Counted from the stretch's first letter, positions 1,963 through 62,472 are shown. The stretch: 64,000 bases of DNA from Escherichia coli (GCF_029227855.1 NZ_CP074356.1), one strand, 5' to 3'. The notes: generated by a model not told the origin, from the letters alone. Translations and numbers: made by a program.

Positions 1963-2685
1963 TTAAACGATGCGGCAGGCGTCGGCTTCCCAGCGGTAAC
2001 CGACGCCGTAAACGGCACGGATAAAGGACTGTTCGGCGTCGAGAGATTCCAGCTTGCGACGCAGGTTTTTAATGTGGCTGTCGATGGTGCGGTCGGTTAC
2101 TACGCGGTAGTCGTCATAAAGATGATTGAGCAATTGCTCGCGGGAGAACACTTTTCCTGGTTCATGAGAGAGCGTTTTCAGCAGACGAAATTCCGCAGGC
2201 GTCAGGTCAAGCATTTTTCCGCGCCATGAAGCCTGAAAACGACCTTCGTCGATAATCAACGGGCTTTCAGCATCCTGTTGCTGCAACTCACGCTGCGGTT
2301 TGCAACGGCGCAAAATGGTTTTGACGCGCGCTACCACTTCCCGTGGGCTGTACGGCTTGCAGATATAATCATCTGCGCCAATTTCCAGCCCCAGCAGGCG
2401 GTCGATCTCTTCGATTTTTGCTGTCACCATCACGATCGGAATGTCAGAAAAACGACGAATTTCCCGACACAGCGTCAGGCCATCGGTGCCAGGGAGCATC
2501 AGATCCAGCAGGATCAGATCCGGTGGTGTCTGGCGCACATACGGCAGTACCTGATCGCCGTGGCTAATCAACGTTGGCGCATAGCTCGCAGCACGCAGAT
2601 AATCAATGAGTAACTGCCCCAGCTTCGGTTCATCTTCCACGATCAAAATACGCGGTGTGTTTTCGTCGATTGGTAACTCGGTCAT
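1963..2685 (-). CDS. baeR: OmpR-family response regulator BaeR
   Basis: 240 aa; receiver domain ([13 protein letters not shown]...[14 protein letters not shown]) plus winged-helix output domain; 4-nt overlap with baeS upstream. Confidence 0.95.
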
Positions 2686-4085
2686 ACTTCTCTCTGTAAA
2701 TCCCGTTCCAGCGGTAACTCTACTGTAATGCTTACCCCGCCAAAAGGCGAATGGGCAGCAATAATGCGGCCATTATGGGCTTCAACAATGTTCAGGCAAA
2801 TCGCCAGCCCCAGCCCGGAACCGCCGCTGGCGCGGTTGCGGGAGCCTTCGGCGCGATAAAAACGTTCAAACAATTTTTGTAGCTGATCGTCACTGACGCC
2901 CGGCGCGCTGTCGGCAAAGGTCAGTCGCACCGTTTTGTCGTGCTGCTCGGCAGAGATTTTCAGGCTGCCGCCGCTGTCAGTGTAGCGCAGGCTGTTTTCA
3001 AGTAAGTTATTGAATAACTGCATTAAACGGTCGCGATCGCCAAATACGGTAATACTGTCTGGCAGGGAGAATTGCAGTTTCAGGCCACGGCTGGCAAATC
3101 GTTCGCGAAATGCGCCGCCCGCTACTTCCAGCAGTGGGATCAAATCTACCGGTGCTTTTTGATAGGCGAGAGCGCCTTCATCAGACATCGACAACTGATG
3201 GAGATCGTCAACCAGTTTGGTCAGTGTACCGACCTCCGCCTGTAAAGACGCCACCGTCTCCGGCGTGAATTTACGCACGCCATCCTGAATGGCTTCCAGT
3301 TCACCGCGCAGCACCGCTAATGGCGTACGCAGTTCGTGAGAAATATCGGCCATAAAATCGCGGCGCATTTGCTGGTTTTTCTCCAGCGTGCTGGCGAGCT
3401 GGTTGAAGTCCTGCGCCAGTTTGCCCAGTTCATCTTCACTGGTGGGCGTCACGCGGGTTGTGAAATCGCCCGCCGCCAGTTTGTGCGTGCCGTCCACCAG
3501 CCGTTTGACCGGGGCCAACAGACCACGCGCCAGCAGAAAGGTGGCGAGCGCCGCGAGTAACGTTGCCAGGGCGACAATCAGCCAGCTGGTTTGCCGCTGT
3601 TGTTTATCGAAATTGATATCAGTATTGCGGGTCAGTCGCTCAACAGGGGAGGCAATCACCGCACCCACTTCCGCACCGTTGACCAGAATGGGTCGCCGTG
3701 TACCGTCAGGTGGAATCGGCGCTCGCGGACCAACCAGCACCTTGTTGTTTTGATCAACCACCCAGAACTGAGTACGCCAGCCGTGCGGCGGCATACCCGG
3801 GCCGGGTTTATCTTCCGAATTATCGTGTTCAAATGAACGCAGGATCTGAAAGACAAAGCGATCGTTGTTGCGCAGGAAGCGCCAGTTACCATGCTGCGCA
3901 TACTGCTCGCCAAGCGCATCACTTAACAGCTGTAATCGCTGTTCATTGCCGTGTTTGATGTAATCAATAAAGCCACGCTCAAAACTGATACGCACCGCCC
4001 AGTGCATACTGATCAGCAAGACAATGCAGGTGGCGAAAATCGCCAGAAACAGTTTGCCGGTAATACCAGGTCGCCAGAACTTCAT
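2682..4085 (-). CDS. baeS: Sensor histidine kinase BaeS
   Basis: 467 aa; N-terminal TM segments, H-box ([24 protein letters not shown]) and HATPase G-boxes (GGSGLGLAI). Confidence 0.95.
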
Positions 4086-11500: not shown

Positions 11501-11698
11501 ATCCGGGCTGGCACCTGGGTAGAGGGTGACCACCTGAATGGTTGGATAGTCCACTTCCGGCAGCGCCGAAACGGGCAGGGCACGATAACCGATAATCCCG
11601 GCGAGTAAGATCGCCACCATCAGCAGCGTGGTGGCGACAGGACGCATAATAAACAGGCGCGATGGGCCGCCTGTGCTGCTCGGGGGTAACACCTGCAT
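8576..11698 (-). CDS. mdtB: RND multidrug efflux pump subunit MdtB
   Basis: 1040 aa; RND family, paralogous to mdtC; start overlaps the mdtA stop. Confidence 0.95.
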
Positions 11699-12945
11699 CA
11701 GGAGCGTGCTCCTTTTTTCGCGTATTCGCGGCTGGTGGCTTTCTCTTCCGGAGTGGTGGCGCTCTGGGCTTCCACTACTTCCACTTTCGCCCCTTCGGTC
11801 AGGCGATCAATGCCGTCTGTCACTACGCGGTCGCCCGCAGAAATACCTGCGCGGATCACCACTTTCTGACTGTCCTGAATGCCCGGCGTCACCAGATGTT
11901 TGCTGACCTTGTTTTCGCTATTCAGCACCCAGACAAAATGGCCTTCATTGCCCATTTGCAGGGCGGCGGTGGGGATCACCACGGCGTTTTGTTCGGTGTC
12001 GACTAACATACGCGCGTTAACAAACTGATTGGGAAACAGTGCATCATCCTGATTATTAAAGCGTGCTTTCACTTTAATCGTACCGGTAGTGGCATCGATT
12101 TGGTTATCGAGGCTTAACAGCGTGCCTTCACTTAATTTCTTCGAGTTGGTGCGATCCCAGGCTTCAACAACCAGCGGTTTTCCGGCTTTTTGCGCCTGTA
12201 CTACGGTAGCGATATCGCTTTCCGGCAGGGTAAAGACTAAATCGATAGGGTGCGTCTGGGTGATCACCACAATCCCGGTGGTATCACCACTGGAGATTTG
12301 GTTACCAACATCAACCTGCTTGAGACCAACGCGACCATCGACTGGTGCGGTGATGCGGCTCCAGTCGAGTTGCAGCTGCGCGCTGGCGACGCTTGCTTCA
12401 TCAGCCTTAATGGTGCCTTCGGTTTCACTGACCAGCGCCTGTTGGGCATCCAGCTCCTGACGAGATACGAGATTGGTTTTTACCAGTTGTTGATAACGCG
12501 CCAGGTCACGGCGGGCGTTGGCAAGCGTGGCTTTATCTTTTGCCAGTTGGCCCTGGGCTTGTGCTAATGCAACTTTGAACTGGCTTGGGTCAATTTCTGC
12601 CAGTAAATCGCCTGCTTTGACCTGCTGGCCTTCCTGGAAATGTAACGCTATCAGTTGGCCGTCCACGCGGCTGCGCACCGTAACGGTATTAGCGGCGGTA
12701 ATGGTGCCAAGCCCGGTGAGGTAACGCGGAACTGCCTGTTCTACGGCGGTCGCCGCCTGAACCGGGGCTAATGGGCCGGAACGCATACCACGGCGACCAC
12801 CCGCTGGCGATTGCTGCGCTTGTTTCGTCGCCCCTGGGGCTGCACTCCGGGAGTCATTGCGGCCTTGCCAGAACCAGAATGCGGCGATGGCGGCGATAAC
12901 CACCACGATTACGATTACCCAACGGGATTTATAACTGCCTTTCAT
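11698..12945 (-). CDS. mdtA: RND efflux membrane fusion (periplasmic adaptor) protein MdtA
   Basis: 415 aa from ATG at 12945 ([27 protein letters not shown]...), matching remembered MdtA; the ORF-track 5' extension to 13092 is rejected. Confidence 0.9.
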
Positions 12946-12998
12946 CGTTAAGAGTTTCTCTTCCTGAAACGTTTCGCGGAATGATACTAGTGTAGCCA

Positions 12999-13016
12999 GC
13001 CAATAAGGGAGAAAAA
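12999..13016 (-). promoter_or_regulatory. Candidate BaeR-binding box in the mdtA promoter
   Basis: Minus strand reads TTTTTCTCCCTTATTGGC, close to the reported BaeR consensus TTTTTCTCCATDATTGGC, about 55 bp upstream of the mdtA start. Confidence 0.5.
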
Positions 13017-13175
13017 TGGAGGAATTATGAAACACTATCGGGAATCGTCTGAATGGCGGGCACATTTGCGAGCACGCATCCAGTAATAACACATGAAACT
13101 ATTTTATCTACGCGTTAGCGATAGACTACGTGCATGGCGAAAGGAGGTAAGCCGATGATTTCAGCGGGACGCTGA

Positions 13176-13320
13176 AACGGGAAAGCCCCTCCCGAGGAAG
13201 GGGCCATAAATAAATAAGGAAAGGGTCATGATGAAGCTACTCATCATCGTGGTGCTCTTAGTCATTAGCTGGCCAGCTTACTAAGACTACCAGGGCGGGG
13301 GAAACCCCGCTCTACCCTCA
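13176..13320 (-). ncRNA. Sib-type antisense sRNA, copy 1 (antitoxin of ibs)
   Basis: Minus-strand promoter TTGACA (13355..13350), 17-bp spacer, TACTTT (13332..13327); transcript fully overlaps ibs copy 1; GC-rich hairpin (13186..13205) followed by a U-rich stretch on the minus strand. Ends are approximate. Confidence 0.5.
13228..13284 (+). CDS. Type I toxin Ibs, 18 aa hydrophobic peptide (MMKLLIIVVLLVISWPAY)
   Basis: ATGATG start followed by a hydrophobic 18-codon ORF, typical of Ibs toxins, preceded by AAGGAAAGGG. Confidence 0.75.
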   Translation: MMKLLIIVVLLVISWPAY

Positions 13321-13506
13321 CTCCTGAAAGTATGCCTTCACGATAAGATTGTCAATCTGCAGGCTTTGCAGTCTGCGATCCTGCCAGCAAATATTCTTTG
13401 CGAGACGTTACGCAATAATCACACTGGAAACTATTTTATCCGCAAGTCAGCGATAGACTGCATACAGGGCGAAAGGAGGTAAGCCGACGATTTCAGCGGG
13501 ACGCTG

Positions 13507-13648
13507 AAACGGGAAAGCCCCTCCCGAGGAAGGGGCCTTAAATAAGGAAAGGGTCATGATGAAGATACTCATCATCGTGGTGCTCTTAGTGATTAGCTAC
13601 CCAGCATACTAAGACTACCAGGGCGGGGGAAACCCCGCTCTACCCTCA
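13507..13648 (-). ncRNA. Sib-type antisense sRNA, copy 2
   Basis: Same architecture as copy 1: minus-strand TTGACA (13683..13678), 17-bp spacer, TAATTT (13660..13655); hairpin plus U-rich 3' end near 13507. Ends are approximate. Confidence 0.5.
13556..13612 (+). CDS. Type I toxin Ibs, 18 aa (MMKILIIVVLLVISYPAY)
   Basis: Paralogue of copy 1 at the same position in repeat unit 2. Confidence 0.75.
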   Translation: MMKILIIVVLLVISYPAY

Positions 13649-13835
13649 CTCCTGAAATTATGCCTTCACGATAAGATTGTCAATCTGCAGGCTTTGCAGT
13701 CTGCGATCCTGCCAGCAAATATTCTTTGCGAGTCGTTACGCAATAATCACAGAGGAAACTATTTTGTTCACGCGTTAGCGATAGACTGCATTCAGGGCGA
13801 AAGGAGGTAAGCCGACGATTTCAGCGGGACGCTGA

Positions 13836-13983
13836 AACGGGAAACCCTCTCCCGGAGAAGAGGGCTTTTAATAAGGAAAGGGTTATGATGAAGCACGTCA
13901 TCATACTGGTGATACTCTTAGTGATTAGCTTCCAGGCTTACTAAGAACACCAGGGGGAGGTGGAAACCTCTCCCTAACCCTCA
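13836..13983 (-). ncRNA. Sib-type antisense sRNA, copy 3
   Basis: Minus-strand TTGACA (14018..14013), 17-bp spacer, TAATTT (13995..13990); diverged hairpin CCCTCTCCCGGAGAAGAGGG. Ends are approximate. Confidence 0.45.
13885..13944 (+). CDS. ibsA: Type I toxin Ibs, 19 aa (MMKHVIILVILLVISFQAY), IbsA-like
   Basis: The 19-aa peptide matches the remembered IbsA sequence; it is the most diverged of the three copies. Confidence 0.7.
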   Translation: MMKHVIILVILLVISFQAY

Positions 13984-14164
13984 CTCCTGAAATTATGTCA
14001 CTCCGCCCTTAGTGTCAATCGACGGCTCTCCGTTCTTGCGAGGCGAATAGCAAAATTTTCTGCGCCGCCGGGCCTAATTCTGAAAGTTTCTTCGTTTGCT
14101 CTTATTTCATTATTGCAGTCGGTATGATACCGGACCTCAATAATTCTCTAAGAAAGGATTTCTT

Positions 14165-14824
14165 ATGAGCGAACAAATCACGTTTGCCACCAGCGATTTT
14201 GCCAGTAACCCGGAACCACGTTGCCCCTGCATTTTGCTGTTGGATGTTTCTGGTTCGATGAGTGGTAGACCTATTAATGAACTTAACGCCGGATTGGTTA
14301 CCTTTCGCGATGAGCTGCTTGCCGATTCGCTGGCCTTAAAAAGAGTGGAACTCGGTATTGTGACGTTCGGCCCGGTGCATGTGGAACAACCCTTTACCAG
14401 CGCCGCTAATTTTTTCCCGCCCATCCTGTTTGCCCAAGGCGATACACCAATGGGGGCCGCCATTACCAAAGCCCTGGATATGGTTGAGGAGCGCAAACGT
14501 GAGTATCGCGCCAATGGTATTTCCTATTATCGTCCGTGGATTTTCCTGATCACTGATGGCGCACCAACCGATGAGTGGCAGGCTGCCGCCAACAAAGTGT
14601 TTCAGGGGGAAGAAGATAAGAAGTTTGCCTTCTTTTCCATCGGTGTTCAGGGGGCGGATATGAAGACTTTGGCACAAATCAGCGTTCGTCAGCCTTTGCC
14701 ACTGCAGGGATTACAATTCCGTGAACTGTTTAGCTGGTTATCCAGTTCGCTGCGTTCGGTTTCCCGCTCCACGCCGGGAACGGAAGTTGTGCTGGAAGCG
14801 CCAAAAGGCTGGACGTCAGTGTGA
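14165..14824 (+). CDS. yegL: von Willebrand factor A (vWA, TerY-like) domain protein YegL
   Basis: 219 aa; MIDAS motif DVSGSMSG in [15 protein letters not shown]; first gene of the yegL-yegK-yegI operon. Confidence 0.9.
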
Positions 14825-29044: not shown

Positions 29045-29083
29045 CAGTGTATTGGTAGCTAAAAAGCCAGGGGCGGTAGCGTG
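29045..29083 (+). promoter_or_regulatory. JUMPstart element with ops (GGCGGTAGCGTG, RfaH recruitment) in the colanic acid operon leader
   Basis: CAGTGTATTGGTAGCTAAAAAGCCAGGGGCGGTAGCGTG matches the 39-bp JUMPstart consensus; ops core at 29072..29083, about 180 bp upstream of wza. Confidence 0.7.
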
Positions 29084-43458: not shown

Positions 43459-43558
43459 CCGTTGAATAATCAACCGGATTAATTCTCCGGTAAATAACGA
43501 AAAAACAAAATTGGCCGCTTCGGTCAGGGCCAACTATTGCCTGAAAAAGGGTAACGAT

Positions 43559-53157: not shown

Positions 53158-53196
53158 CAGTACTCTGGTAGCTGTAAAGCCAGGGGCGGTAGCGTG
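53158..53196 (+). promoter_or_regulatory. JUMPstart element with ops (GGCGGTAGCGTG) upstream of the O-antigen cluster
   Basis: CAGTACTCTGGTAGCTGTAAAGCCAGGGGCGGTAGCGTG, 39 bp; ops core at 53185..53196, about 100 bp upstream of the first O-antigen gene. Confidence 0.75.
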
Positions 53197-61764: not shown

Positions 61765-62472
61765 CAGAAAACCCCCAGCTAGGCTGGGGGTTCCGGAAAG
61801 CTTTCAGCTTTGAGCCAGTTATTAAAACCCCTTTTGATTTGTTAAAACACTTTGCGGTCTGGCAACTGCAAGTGTCAAACAAGAAATCAAAAGGGGGTCC
61901 CAATGGGGAACGAAAAGAGCTTAGCGCACACCCGATGGAACTGTAAATATCACATAGTTTTTGCGCCAAAATACCGAAGACAGGTGTTCTACAGAGAGAA
62001 GCGTAGAGCAATAGGCAGTATTTTGAGAAAGCTGTGTGAGTGGAAAAGCGTACGGATTCTGGAAGCTGAATGCTGTGCAGATCATATCCATATGCTTGTG
62101 GAGATCCCGCCCAAAATGAGCGTATCCGGCTTTATGGGATATCTGAAAGGGAAAAGCAGTCTGATGCTTTACGAGCAGTTTGGTGATTTGAAATTCAAAT
62201 ACAGGAACAGGGAGTTCTGGTGCAGAGGGTACTACGTCGATACGGTGGGTAAGAACACGGCGAAGATACAGGATTACATAAAGCACCAGCTTGAAGAGGA
62301 TAAAATGGGAGAGCAGTTATCGATTCCCTATCCGGGCAGCCCGTTTACGGGCCGTAAGTAACGAAGTTGGATGCAAATGTCAGATCGTGTGCGCCTGTTA
62401 GGGCGCGGCTGGTAAGAGAGCCTTATAGGCGCATTTGAAAAACCTCCGGCTATGCCGGAGGATATTTATTTT
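61765..62472 (+). mobile_element. IS200-family insertion sequence (IS200/IS605 family); boundaries approximate
   Basis: About 0.7 kb element between gnd and ugd carrying a tnpA ORF; left-end hairpin CCCCCAGCTAGGCTGGGGG and right-end hairpin CCTCCGGCTATGCCGGAGG. gnd and ugd are directly adjacent in K-12. Confidence 0.7.
61903..62361 (+). CDS. tnpA: IS200 transposase TnpA (HUH Y1 transposase)
   Basis: 152 aa from ATG at 61903; MGNEKSLAHTRWNCKYHIVFAPKYRRQVFY...HIHMLVEIPPK (HuH motif) is characteristic of IS200 TnpA. Confidence 0.85.
   Translation: MGNEKSLAHTRWNCKYHIVFAPKYRRQVFYREKRRAIGSILRKLCEWKSVRILEAECCADHIHMLVEIPPKMSVSGFMGYLKGKSSLMLYEQFGDLKFKYRNREFWCRGYYVDTVGKNTAKIQDYIKHQLEEDKMGEQLSIPYPGSPFTGRK

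Follow-up and report, generated by a model that had tools for sequence, protein, structure and literature searches.

In Escherichia coli K-12, the small RNA genes sibA and sibB lie between yegL and mdtA, and each spans a toxin gene, ibsA or ibsB, on the opposite strand (b4436/b4667 and b4437/b4668). The toxicity of Ibs and its repression by the cognate Sib have been shown for the K-12 homologues (Fozo 2008, as cited in PMC2943612, PMC4147584 and PMC8309996). Overexpressed Ibs inserts in the inner membrane and depolarises it within minutes (PMC8309996), and Salmonella IbsA has been described as binding the a and b subunits of the Fo sector of ATP synthase, with a fall in ATP (2025 preprint, bioRxiv 10.1101/2025.05.26.656083). 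The Sib RNA spans both the ORF and the ribosome-binding site, so that translation is blocked and RNase III-dependent decay is promoted (PMC4147584). In SibC, two independent target-recognition domains (TRDs) have been defined: TRD1 (+46 to +68), a hairpin loop opposite the ORF, and TRD2 (+99 to +115), a single-stranded linker opposite the translation initiation region that is assisted by the P6 loop (Han et al. 2010, PMC2943612). These domains are the variable regions among Sib paralogues, and swaps of 3-9 nt at these sites switch specificity between ibsC and ibsD (Han et al. 2010, PMC2943612). Tandem duplication is a trait of the family, with seven Ibs genes in O157:H7 Sakai compared with five in K-12 (PMC2887945). 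The ldr/rdl and zor/orz systems of E. coli also combine a small hydrophobic toxin with an antisense RNA, and are likewise found in tandem in one intergenic region with strain-variable copy number (Fozo et al. 2010, PMC2887945). Their sequences are unrelated to those of ibs/sib. In addition, the ldr/rdl and zor/orz antitoxins pair with the 5' UTR, rather than spanning the whole ORF.

We analysed a stretch of 64,000 nucleotides from E. coli (GCF_029227855.1, NZ_CP074356.1), referred to here as the window. At 13097-14018 it contains three tandem direct repeats of ~330 bp each, with a start-to-start spacing of 328-332 nt and weaker repeat similarity from 13065 on. The array is located in the intergenic region between two genes, an arrangement like that of K-12:

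11698-12945, minus strand: mdtA, transcribed away from the array (ORF list and RefSeq annotation of an identical locus)
14165-14824, plus strand: yegL, encoding a vWA-domain protein (ORF list and RefSeq annotation)

The site, orientation, promoter layout and RNA fold are those of sibA/ibsA and sibB/ibsB of K-12. The differences are that K-12 has two units and the window three, that window unit 1 carries an extra linker ATAA, and that both B-type peptides of the window differ from IbsB. We read the region as the E. coli mdtA-yegL ibs/sib locus in a three-unit form, in which each unit is a type I toxin-antitoxin module, with a probability of about 0.93. This reading draws on what the sequence shows here: its identity to known loci, its structure and synteny, how the arrays are distributed in the population and where the units differ. 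What is said of transcription, toxicity, repression and TRD function comes from studies published on the homologues in K-12. The original prediction had placed ibs/sib type I units between mdtA and yegL, and the Rfam matches, the synteny and the Ibs translations all agree with it. The proposed layout, three tandem ~330-bp units with an Ibs peptide on the plus strand and a Sib antisense RNA on the minus strand, was also confirmed. Its limits (13097-14010) were too short at the end, where they cut the -35 of the third sib promoter (TTGACA, 14018-14013), so that the feature runs to 14018. Furthermore, the whole locus is present with 100% identity in the RefSeq genome JNEC-KY178, where all three ORFs are annotated as Ibs family toxins.

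The toxin ORFs of the three units are the following:

13228-13284, plus strand: ibs copy 1, an 18-aa IbsB-like toxin ORF by translation, MMKLLIIVVLLVISWPAY; the same as WP_100249772.1, 'type I toxin-antitoxin system Ibs family toxin', in the 100%-identical RefSeq locus
13556-13612, plus strand: ibs copy 2, an 18-aa IbsB-like toxin ORF by translation, MMKILIIVVLLVISYPAY (I4, Y15); the same as WP_012767742.1, Ibs family toxin
13885-13944, plus strand: ibs copy 3, which is ibsA, encoding a 19-aa toxin, MMKHVIILVILLVISFQAY; WP_010723109.1 in both the JNEC-KY178 locus and K-12

These translations match exactly the three peptides that had been given for the locus. The copy 3 peptide is identical to K-12 IbsA. 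Because K-12 IbsB is MMKLLIIVVLLVISFPAY, copies 1 and 2 are, judging by their translations, IbsB-like variants and neither is IbsB itself: copy 1 carries F15W and copy 2 carries L4I and F15Y. A Shine-Dalgarno (SD) sequence, AAGGAAAGGG, precedes each of the three ORFs, and each ORF lies with its SD and AUG wholly within the corresponding Sib (13228-13284 inside 13180-13319, 13556-13612 inside 13512-13647 and 13885-13944 inside 13839-13982). The locus is of use for annotation, as it contains three sRNA genes for Sib and three toxin ORFs so small that ORF callers applying a length cut-off miss them.

On the minus strand, the Rfam family SIB_RNA (RF00113) gave three matches, with 140.2, 142.2 and 148.9 bits against a gathering score of 56. 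Their E-values ranged from 6.5e-29 to 4.8e-31 and model positions 1-147 of 147 were covered, so the three matches are far beyond chance. The Rfam coordinates are offset from those of the transcripts because the model takes in a stretch of the promoter and ends before the terminator. The Sib ends and +1 sites were set by homology, through alignment to the annotated K-12 sibA (144 nt) and sibB (136 nt):

13180-13319, minus strand: Sib copy 1 (SibB-like), 140 nt; 140.2 bits; 94.3% identical to K-12 sibB; spans the whole ibs1 ORF, its SD and the start region; terminator hairpin at 13184-13205; predicted fold of -59 kcal/mol, z -4.2
13512-13647, minus strand: Sib copy 2, 136 nt; 142.2 bits; 94.9% identical to K-12 SibB; terminator hairpin at 13514-13539; fold z -3.7
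13839-13982, minus strand: Sib copy 3, the SibA orthologue, 144 nt; 148.9 bits; 98.6% identical to annotated K-12 sibA over 144/144 nt; terminator hairpin at 13842-13867; fold z -5.6

At the RNA level, units 1 and 2 are thus 94-95% identical to K-12 SibB, and the Sib of unit 3 is 98.6% identical to SibA. All three share a common predicted fold, composed of a closing stem, three internal hairpins, a single-stranded linker and a GC-rich terminal hairpin of 9-11 bp followed by UUUCC, and their fold z-scores lie between -3.7 and -5.6 relative to shuffled sequences. When the three window RNAs were compared with K-12 SibA-E (eight family members), compensatory changes on both sides were found at 8 of the 39 consensus pairs. 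One terminator pair is C-G in six of these sequences and U-A in the two SibA-type RNAs. The third unit had been described as having a diverged peptide and a diverged terminator hairpin; this holds for both, and the hairpin is still a hairpin, with pairing kept in changes such as this one from C-G to U-A. The RNA architecture is also that of K-12 SibC (PMC2943612), with the closing stem P1, internal hairpins, the single-stranded J1/7 and the terminator P7. As in the window, SibC has TRD1 opposite the ORF and TRD2 opposite the initiation region, and the variation among paralogues lies in the TRDs. SibC/ibsC differs in its location, between fau and serA rather than between mdtA and yegL, and by ~57-63 differences from the window Sibs.

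The predicted promoters of the three antisense RNAs were read from the sequence as follows:

13327-13355, minus strand: sib1 promoter; -35 TTGACA at 13355-13350, 17-nt spacer, -10 TACTTT at 13332-13327, +1 G at 13319 by homology to K-12 sibB
13655-13683, minus strand: sib2 promoter; -35 TTGACA at 13683-13678, 17-nt spacer, -10 TAATTT at 13660-13655, +1 at 13647; in register with unit 1 at a 328-nt offset
13990-14018, minus strand: sibA (unit 3) promoter; -35 TTGACA at 14018-14013, 17-nt spacer, -10 TAATTT at 13995-13990, +1 G at 13982 from the K-12 sibA annotation

These sigma70 promoters had been called near-consensus, a description that suits the -35 region (exact TTGACA and a 17-nt spacer in 3/3 units) and does not suit the -10 boxes, in which TACTTT or TAATTT gives 3/6 matches. 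The -10 of unit 1 is that of K-12 sibB, and those of units 2 and 3 are that of K-12 sibA. A generic promoter scan of 12950-14160 flagged none of the predicted sib promoters, because their -10 boxes match at only 3/6 positions. A generic terminator scan of the same interval flagged no minus-strand sib terminator, because the 9-11 bp GC-rich hairpin is trailed only by UUUCC; the GC hairpin terminator proposed on this strand is nevertheless real according to the fold prediction. The lone plus-strand terminator-like match of that scan (13845-13864) was rejected, being the complement of the SibA terminator hairpin. Separately, the sole promoter-like site that the generic scan returned in the mdtA-yegL intergenic region was TTCAGA-18-CATAAT (13053-13024), on the mdtA strand. 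Just downstream of it on the minus strand is TTTTTCTCCCTTATTGGC (13017-13000), which we take to resemble a BaeR box, as a candidate only.

By homology to K-12, the units of the window would act as toxin and antitoxin, and this would include the W15 and I4/Y15 alleles. The plus strand of each unit would give an ibs mRNA for a hydrophobic inner-membrane peptide of 18-19 aa that, at high levels, would depolarise the membrane and lower ATP. From the minus strand, the promoter with the perfect -35 would direct an abundant Sib RNA of ~140 nt ending at the GC hairpin. This RNA would complement the whole of the ibs ORF, together with its start codon and Shine-Dalgarno region. Pairing would nucleate at TRD1, the hairpin loop opposite codons ~12-18, and at TRD2, the single-stranded linker opposite the initiation region, and would then spread, which would block translation and trigger mRNA decay. 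A different possibility is that one or more of the units have lost their function and are decaying as relics of the old 'QUAD' repeats. Other strains do have degenerate units, such as a 16-aa truncated IbsA in strain 2002-3211 and an ibsA unit with a changed SD in O157:H7. Moreover, the SibA-type unit was found in 4,493 records (4,492/5,426 genomes) and is absent from ~17% of genomes, for instance MS8320 and Nissle 1917, which are without the IbsA unit, so single units are dispensable. However, all three units of the window keep an intact ORF, the SD, the exact -35, the P1 closing stem and the terminator hairpin, and the -10 of unit 1 (TACTTT) is the same as that of K-12 sibB, which is annotated as an ncRNA ('small RNA SibB') in NC_000913.3. 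We consider decay very improbable in this array.

The number of units was then compared across the species. The original prediction had stated that K-12 carries two copies at this site, in agreement with the K-12 annotation. We searched 5,426 complete E. coli genomes (5,422 records) with the locus and ~400-nt unique anchors on each side. Identity bands alone were rejected as a measure of copy number, and the match span with longer unique anchors was used instead; it was read in 60 of the 5,422 records, evenly stepped down the ranking, and the proportions are therefore sample estimates:

three units, collinear: 24/60 records (~40%), match span 2096-2101 nt
two units: ~26/60 records (~43%), match span ~1,762-1,770 nt
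one unit: 1/60 records, match span ~1,441 nt
four or more units: ~7/60 records (~12%), the match being confined to the yegL side of the query

An earlier sample of 40 records gave the same picture. Four units were confirmed in BL21-Gold(DE3) and in strain 2002-3211, and three-unit arrays are found in O157:H7, O111:H8 and many unrelated clinical, animal and environmental isolates. Three copies had been presented as unusual, and this does not stand with ~40% of the sampled complete genomes having three. The copy-number novelty was to be given up if three copies proved to be the common state, which is what we found in the 60-record sample. At this locus it is K-12 that is unrepresentative of the species, with its two units in a species where two and three are about equally frequent and about 1/8 of genomes have four or more.

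The allele content of the arrays was compared as well. JNEC-KY178 (100% identical), O157:H7 and BL21-Gold(DE3) (four units) have the same locus and cassette alleles, annotated in RefSeq as Ibs family toxins. Arrays of other strains order and combine these alleles differently from the window. Over nine arrays, the B-type peptides are combinatorial, with LL, IL or WI at residues 4-5 and F, Y or W at residue 15, as in the following examples:

window: LL-W, IL-Y, IbsA
O157:H7: IL-Y, WI-F, IbsA
BL21: IL-Y, WI-F, LL-F, IbsA
MS8320: IL-Y, LL-W, without IbsA

Not only does the order of alleles differ between strains; upstream, ORF and downstream segments are also mixed among units. The W15 peptide of window unit 1 is found in the last unit of MS8320, and the copy 2 peptide in unit 1 of BL21-Gold(DE3), O157:H7 2571 and MS8320, the three inspected arrays carrying the copy 2 allele. 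In the single B unit of K-12, the upstream segment matches BL21 unit 1 and the ORF matches BL21 unit 3. This unit looks hybrid, which suggests that K-12 may have lost units by unequal crossing-over, rather than the source strain having gained one.

These comparisons bear on the age of the array. From the three copies, a recent duplication or unequal crossing-over had been suggested. On this reading, a K-12-like ancestor with two copies would lately have gained a third unit, either copied from the IbsB unit or produced by unequal crossing-over. K-12 does have two units, and tandem direct repeats of ~330 bp are a natural substrate for unequal crossing-over. The sequences themselves are difficult to reconcile with such an event: pairwise alignment of units 1 and 2 over 330 nt gave 93.9% identity, far more divergence than a recent copy would show, and three units are present in many lineages, O157:H7 and O111:H8 among them. 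In addition, the copy 2 Sib allele occurs at >=99% identity in 2,010 records, and since it is so widespread and sits at another array position elsewhere (position 1 in the three strains named above), copy 2 was not made from copy 1 in the source strain. The hybrid appearance of the K-12 B unit, with the loss of units that it suggests, also argues against a recent gain. With units 1 and 2 ~6% apart and the copy 2 allele this common, recent duplication is largely refuted and we regard it as extremely improbable.

The array is best regarded as an old set of cassettes that recombine with one another. Its ~330-bp direct repeats are polymorphic; they expand, contract and swap segments through unequal crossing-over and gene conversion, and the number of units ranges from one to four or more depending on the strain. 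Two arrays illustrate the variety of outcomes. In O157:H7 strain 2571 (L009:1040-1141), the ibsA unit is a mosaic, presumably produced by gene conversion between units: its terminator and linker are of the B type and its SD is changed to AAGAAAAGGG. In strain 2002-3211 (L004:1644-2677), three of the four units have the same IbsB peptide and IbsA is cut to 16 aa by a premature stop, which shows that neither the distinctness nor the integrity of units is always maintained.

Between the Sib terminator hairpin and the SD of ibs1, unit 1 has a feature that sets it apart from the other inspected arrays:

13206-13217, plus strand: (ATAA)3 linker, located in the single-stranded TRD2 segment of Sib1

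In those arrays the linker is (ATAA)2 or TTAAATAA, so that the TRD2 linker of Sib1 is longer by 4 nt. Slippage at a short repeat is the likely origin of this expansion. The exact 140-nt Sib1 allele was present at >=99% identity in only 13 of 5,337 E. coli records, and this rare linker is the sole unusual detail of the array.

Lastly, we considered the specificity of pairing among the three units, for which the original prediction had taken the divergence of the third copy as consistent with cognate toxin-antitoxin pairing. Sib1 and Sib2 differ by six substitutions and one 4-nt indel in ~140 nt. In SibC numbering, four of these events lie in TRD1, one in the P6 loop, and one substitution and the indel in TRD2, so that 7/7 fall in the published recognition regions, consistent with cognate pairing. 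TRD1 together with SibC +90 to +115 makes up 40% of the RNA, which gives a rough P of 0.0016 for all seven events falling there in what is a post hoc test. Four of the changes within the ORF are synonymous, which points to the RNA, and not the peptide, as what differs. For the contacts between units, contiguity was counted strictly inside each TRD; the 'longest helix touching a TRD' was discarded as a measure because it is misleading, its runs spilling into the terminator or the flanking stems. Counted in this way, the longest uninterrupted match between Sib1 and ibs2 inside TRD1 is 7 nt. Because the three units differ mostly at the segments where pairing nucleates, each Sib would be expected to act chiefly on its own ibs. 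Cognate pairing in the window units would fit the sequence pattern and is already published for the family, and we infer that all three units are active and mutually insulated in the source strain.

It could also be that the units are not insulated and that Sib1 and Sib2 each repress the other's target, one or the other perhaps acting on ibsA as well, so that the array works as a redundant antitoxin pool and not as three orthogonal pairs. The small number of changes between Sib1 and Sib2 would favour this, as would the long stretches in which units 1 and 2 are identical away from the discriminator positions, among them 19 contiguous nt over the AUG-AUG start codons and the SD, and the 15 and 14 contiguous nt that Sib2 and Sib3 share strictly inside TRD1 and TRD2, respectively. 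K-12 ibsA has been reported to be repressible by a non-cognate Sib, so that pairing in this family need not be strictly one-to-one. Furthermore, the three units of strain 2002-3211 that keep the same IbsB peptide, with units 2 and 3 98.8% identical, indicate that orthogonality is not always kept. On the other hand, every difference between Sib1 and Sib2 is placed in TRD1, the P6 loop or TRD2, the cross-match inside TRD1 does not exceed the 7 nt given above, and changes of 3-9 nt at the same sites are sufficient to switch SibC between ibsC and ibsD (Han et al. 2010, PMC2943612). Taking both sides together, shared repression is a serious possibility that we nonetheless think unlikely, and insulated pairs remain our preferred reading.

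A broader and more speculative extension of insulated pairing concerns the population. The array could be a population-level cassette system with two RNA recognition patches, the P6 loop/TRD2 opposite codons 4-5 and the initiation region, and TRD1 opposite codons 12-17. Recombination would shuffle these patches, and selection for orthogonal pairs would maintain the differences between them inside each genome. The peptide polymorphism (LL/IL/WI at 4-5, F/Y/W at 15) would then be largely a by-product of diversifying selection at the RNA level, and (ATAA)3 would be a fresh retuning of TRD2. All the Sib1/Sib2 differences, the four synonymous ones included, are in these patches and the alleles are combinatorial over the nine arrays, which would be in line with this idea, whereas strain 2002-3211, with its repeated IbsB peptide, speaks against it. 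We regard it as doubtful; its core was already proposed (Han et al. 2010, PMC2943612).

The module, its mechanism, the tandem arrangement and the copy-number variation are already published, and the exact locus is already in RefSeq. The array is an ordinary one that carries little weight as a discovery; its allele table may serve studies of how cis-antisense pairs stay specific.

Other RNA elements were found in the window outside the array. The Hfq-binding sRNA STnc490 gave a full-length Rfam match at 61770-61893 on the plus strand (144.6 bits against a gathering score of 56), and an algC cis-regulatory RNA motif was matched at 43505-43554, also on the plus strand (Rfam, 77.3 bits against a gathering score of 33.8). 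In addition, two JUMPstart elements were matched by Rfam at 29045-29083 and 53158-53196 on the plus strand (57.3 and 60 bits, respectively), which we presume to head the colanic acid and O-antigen gene clusters.
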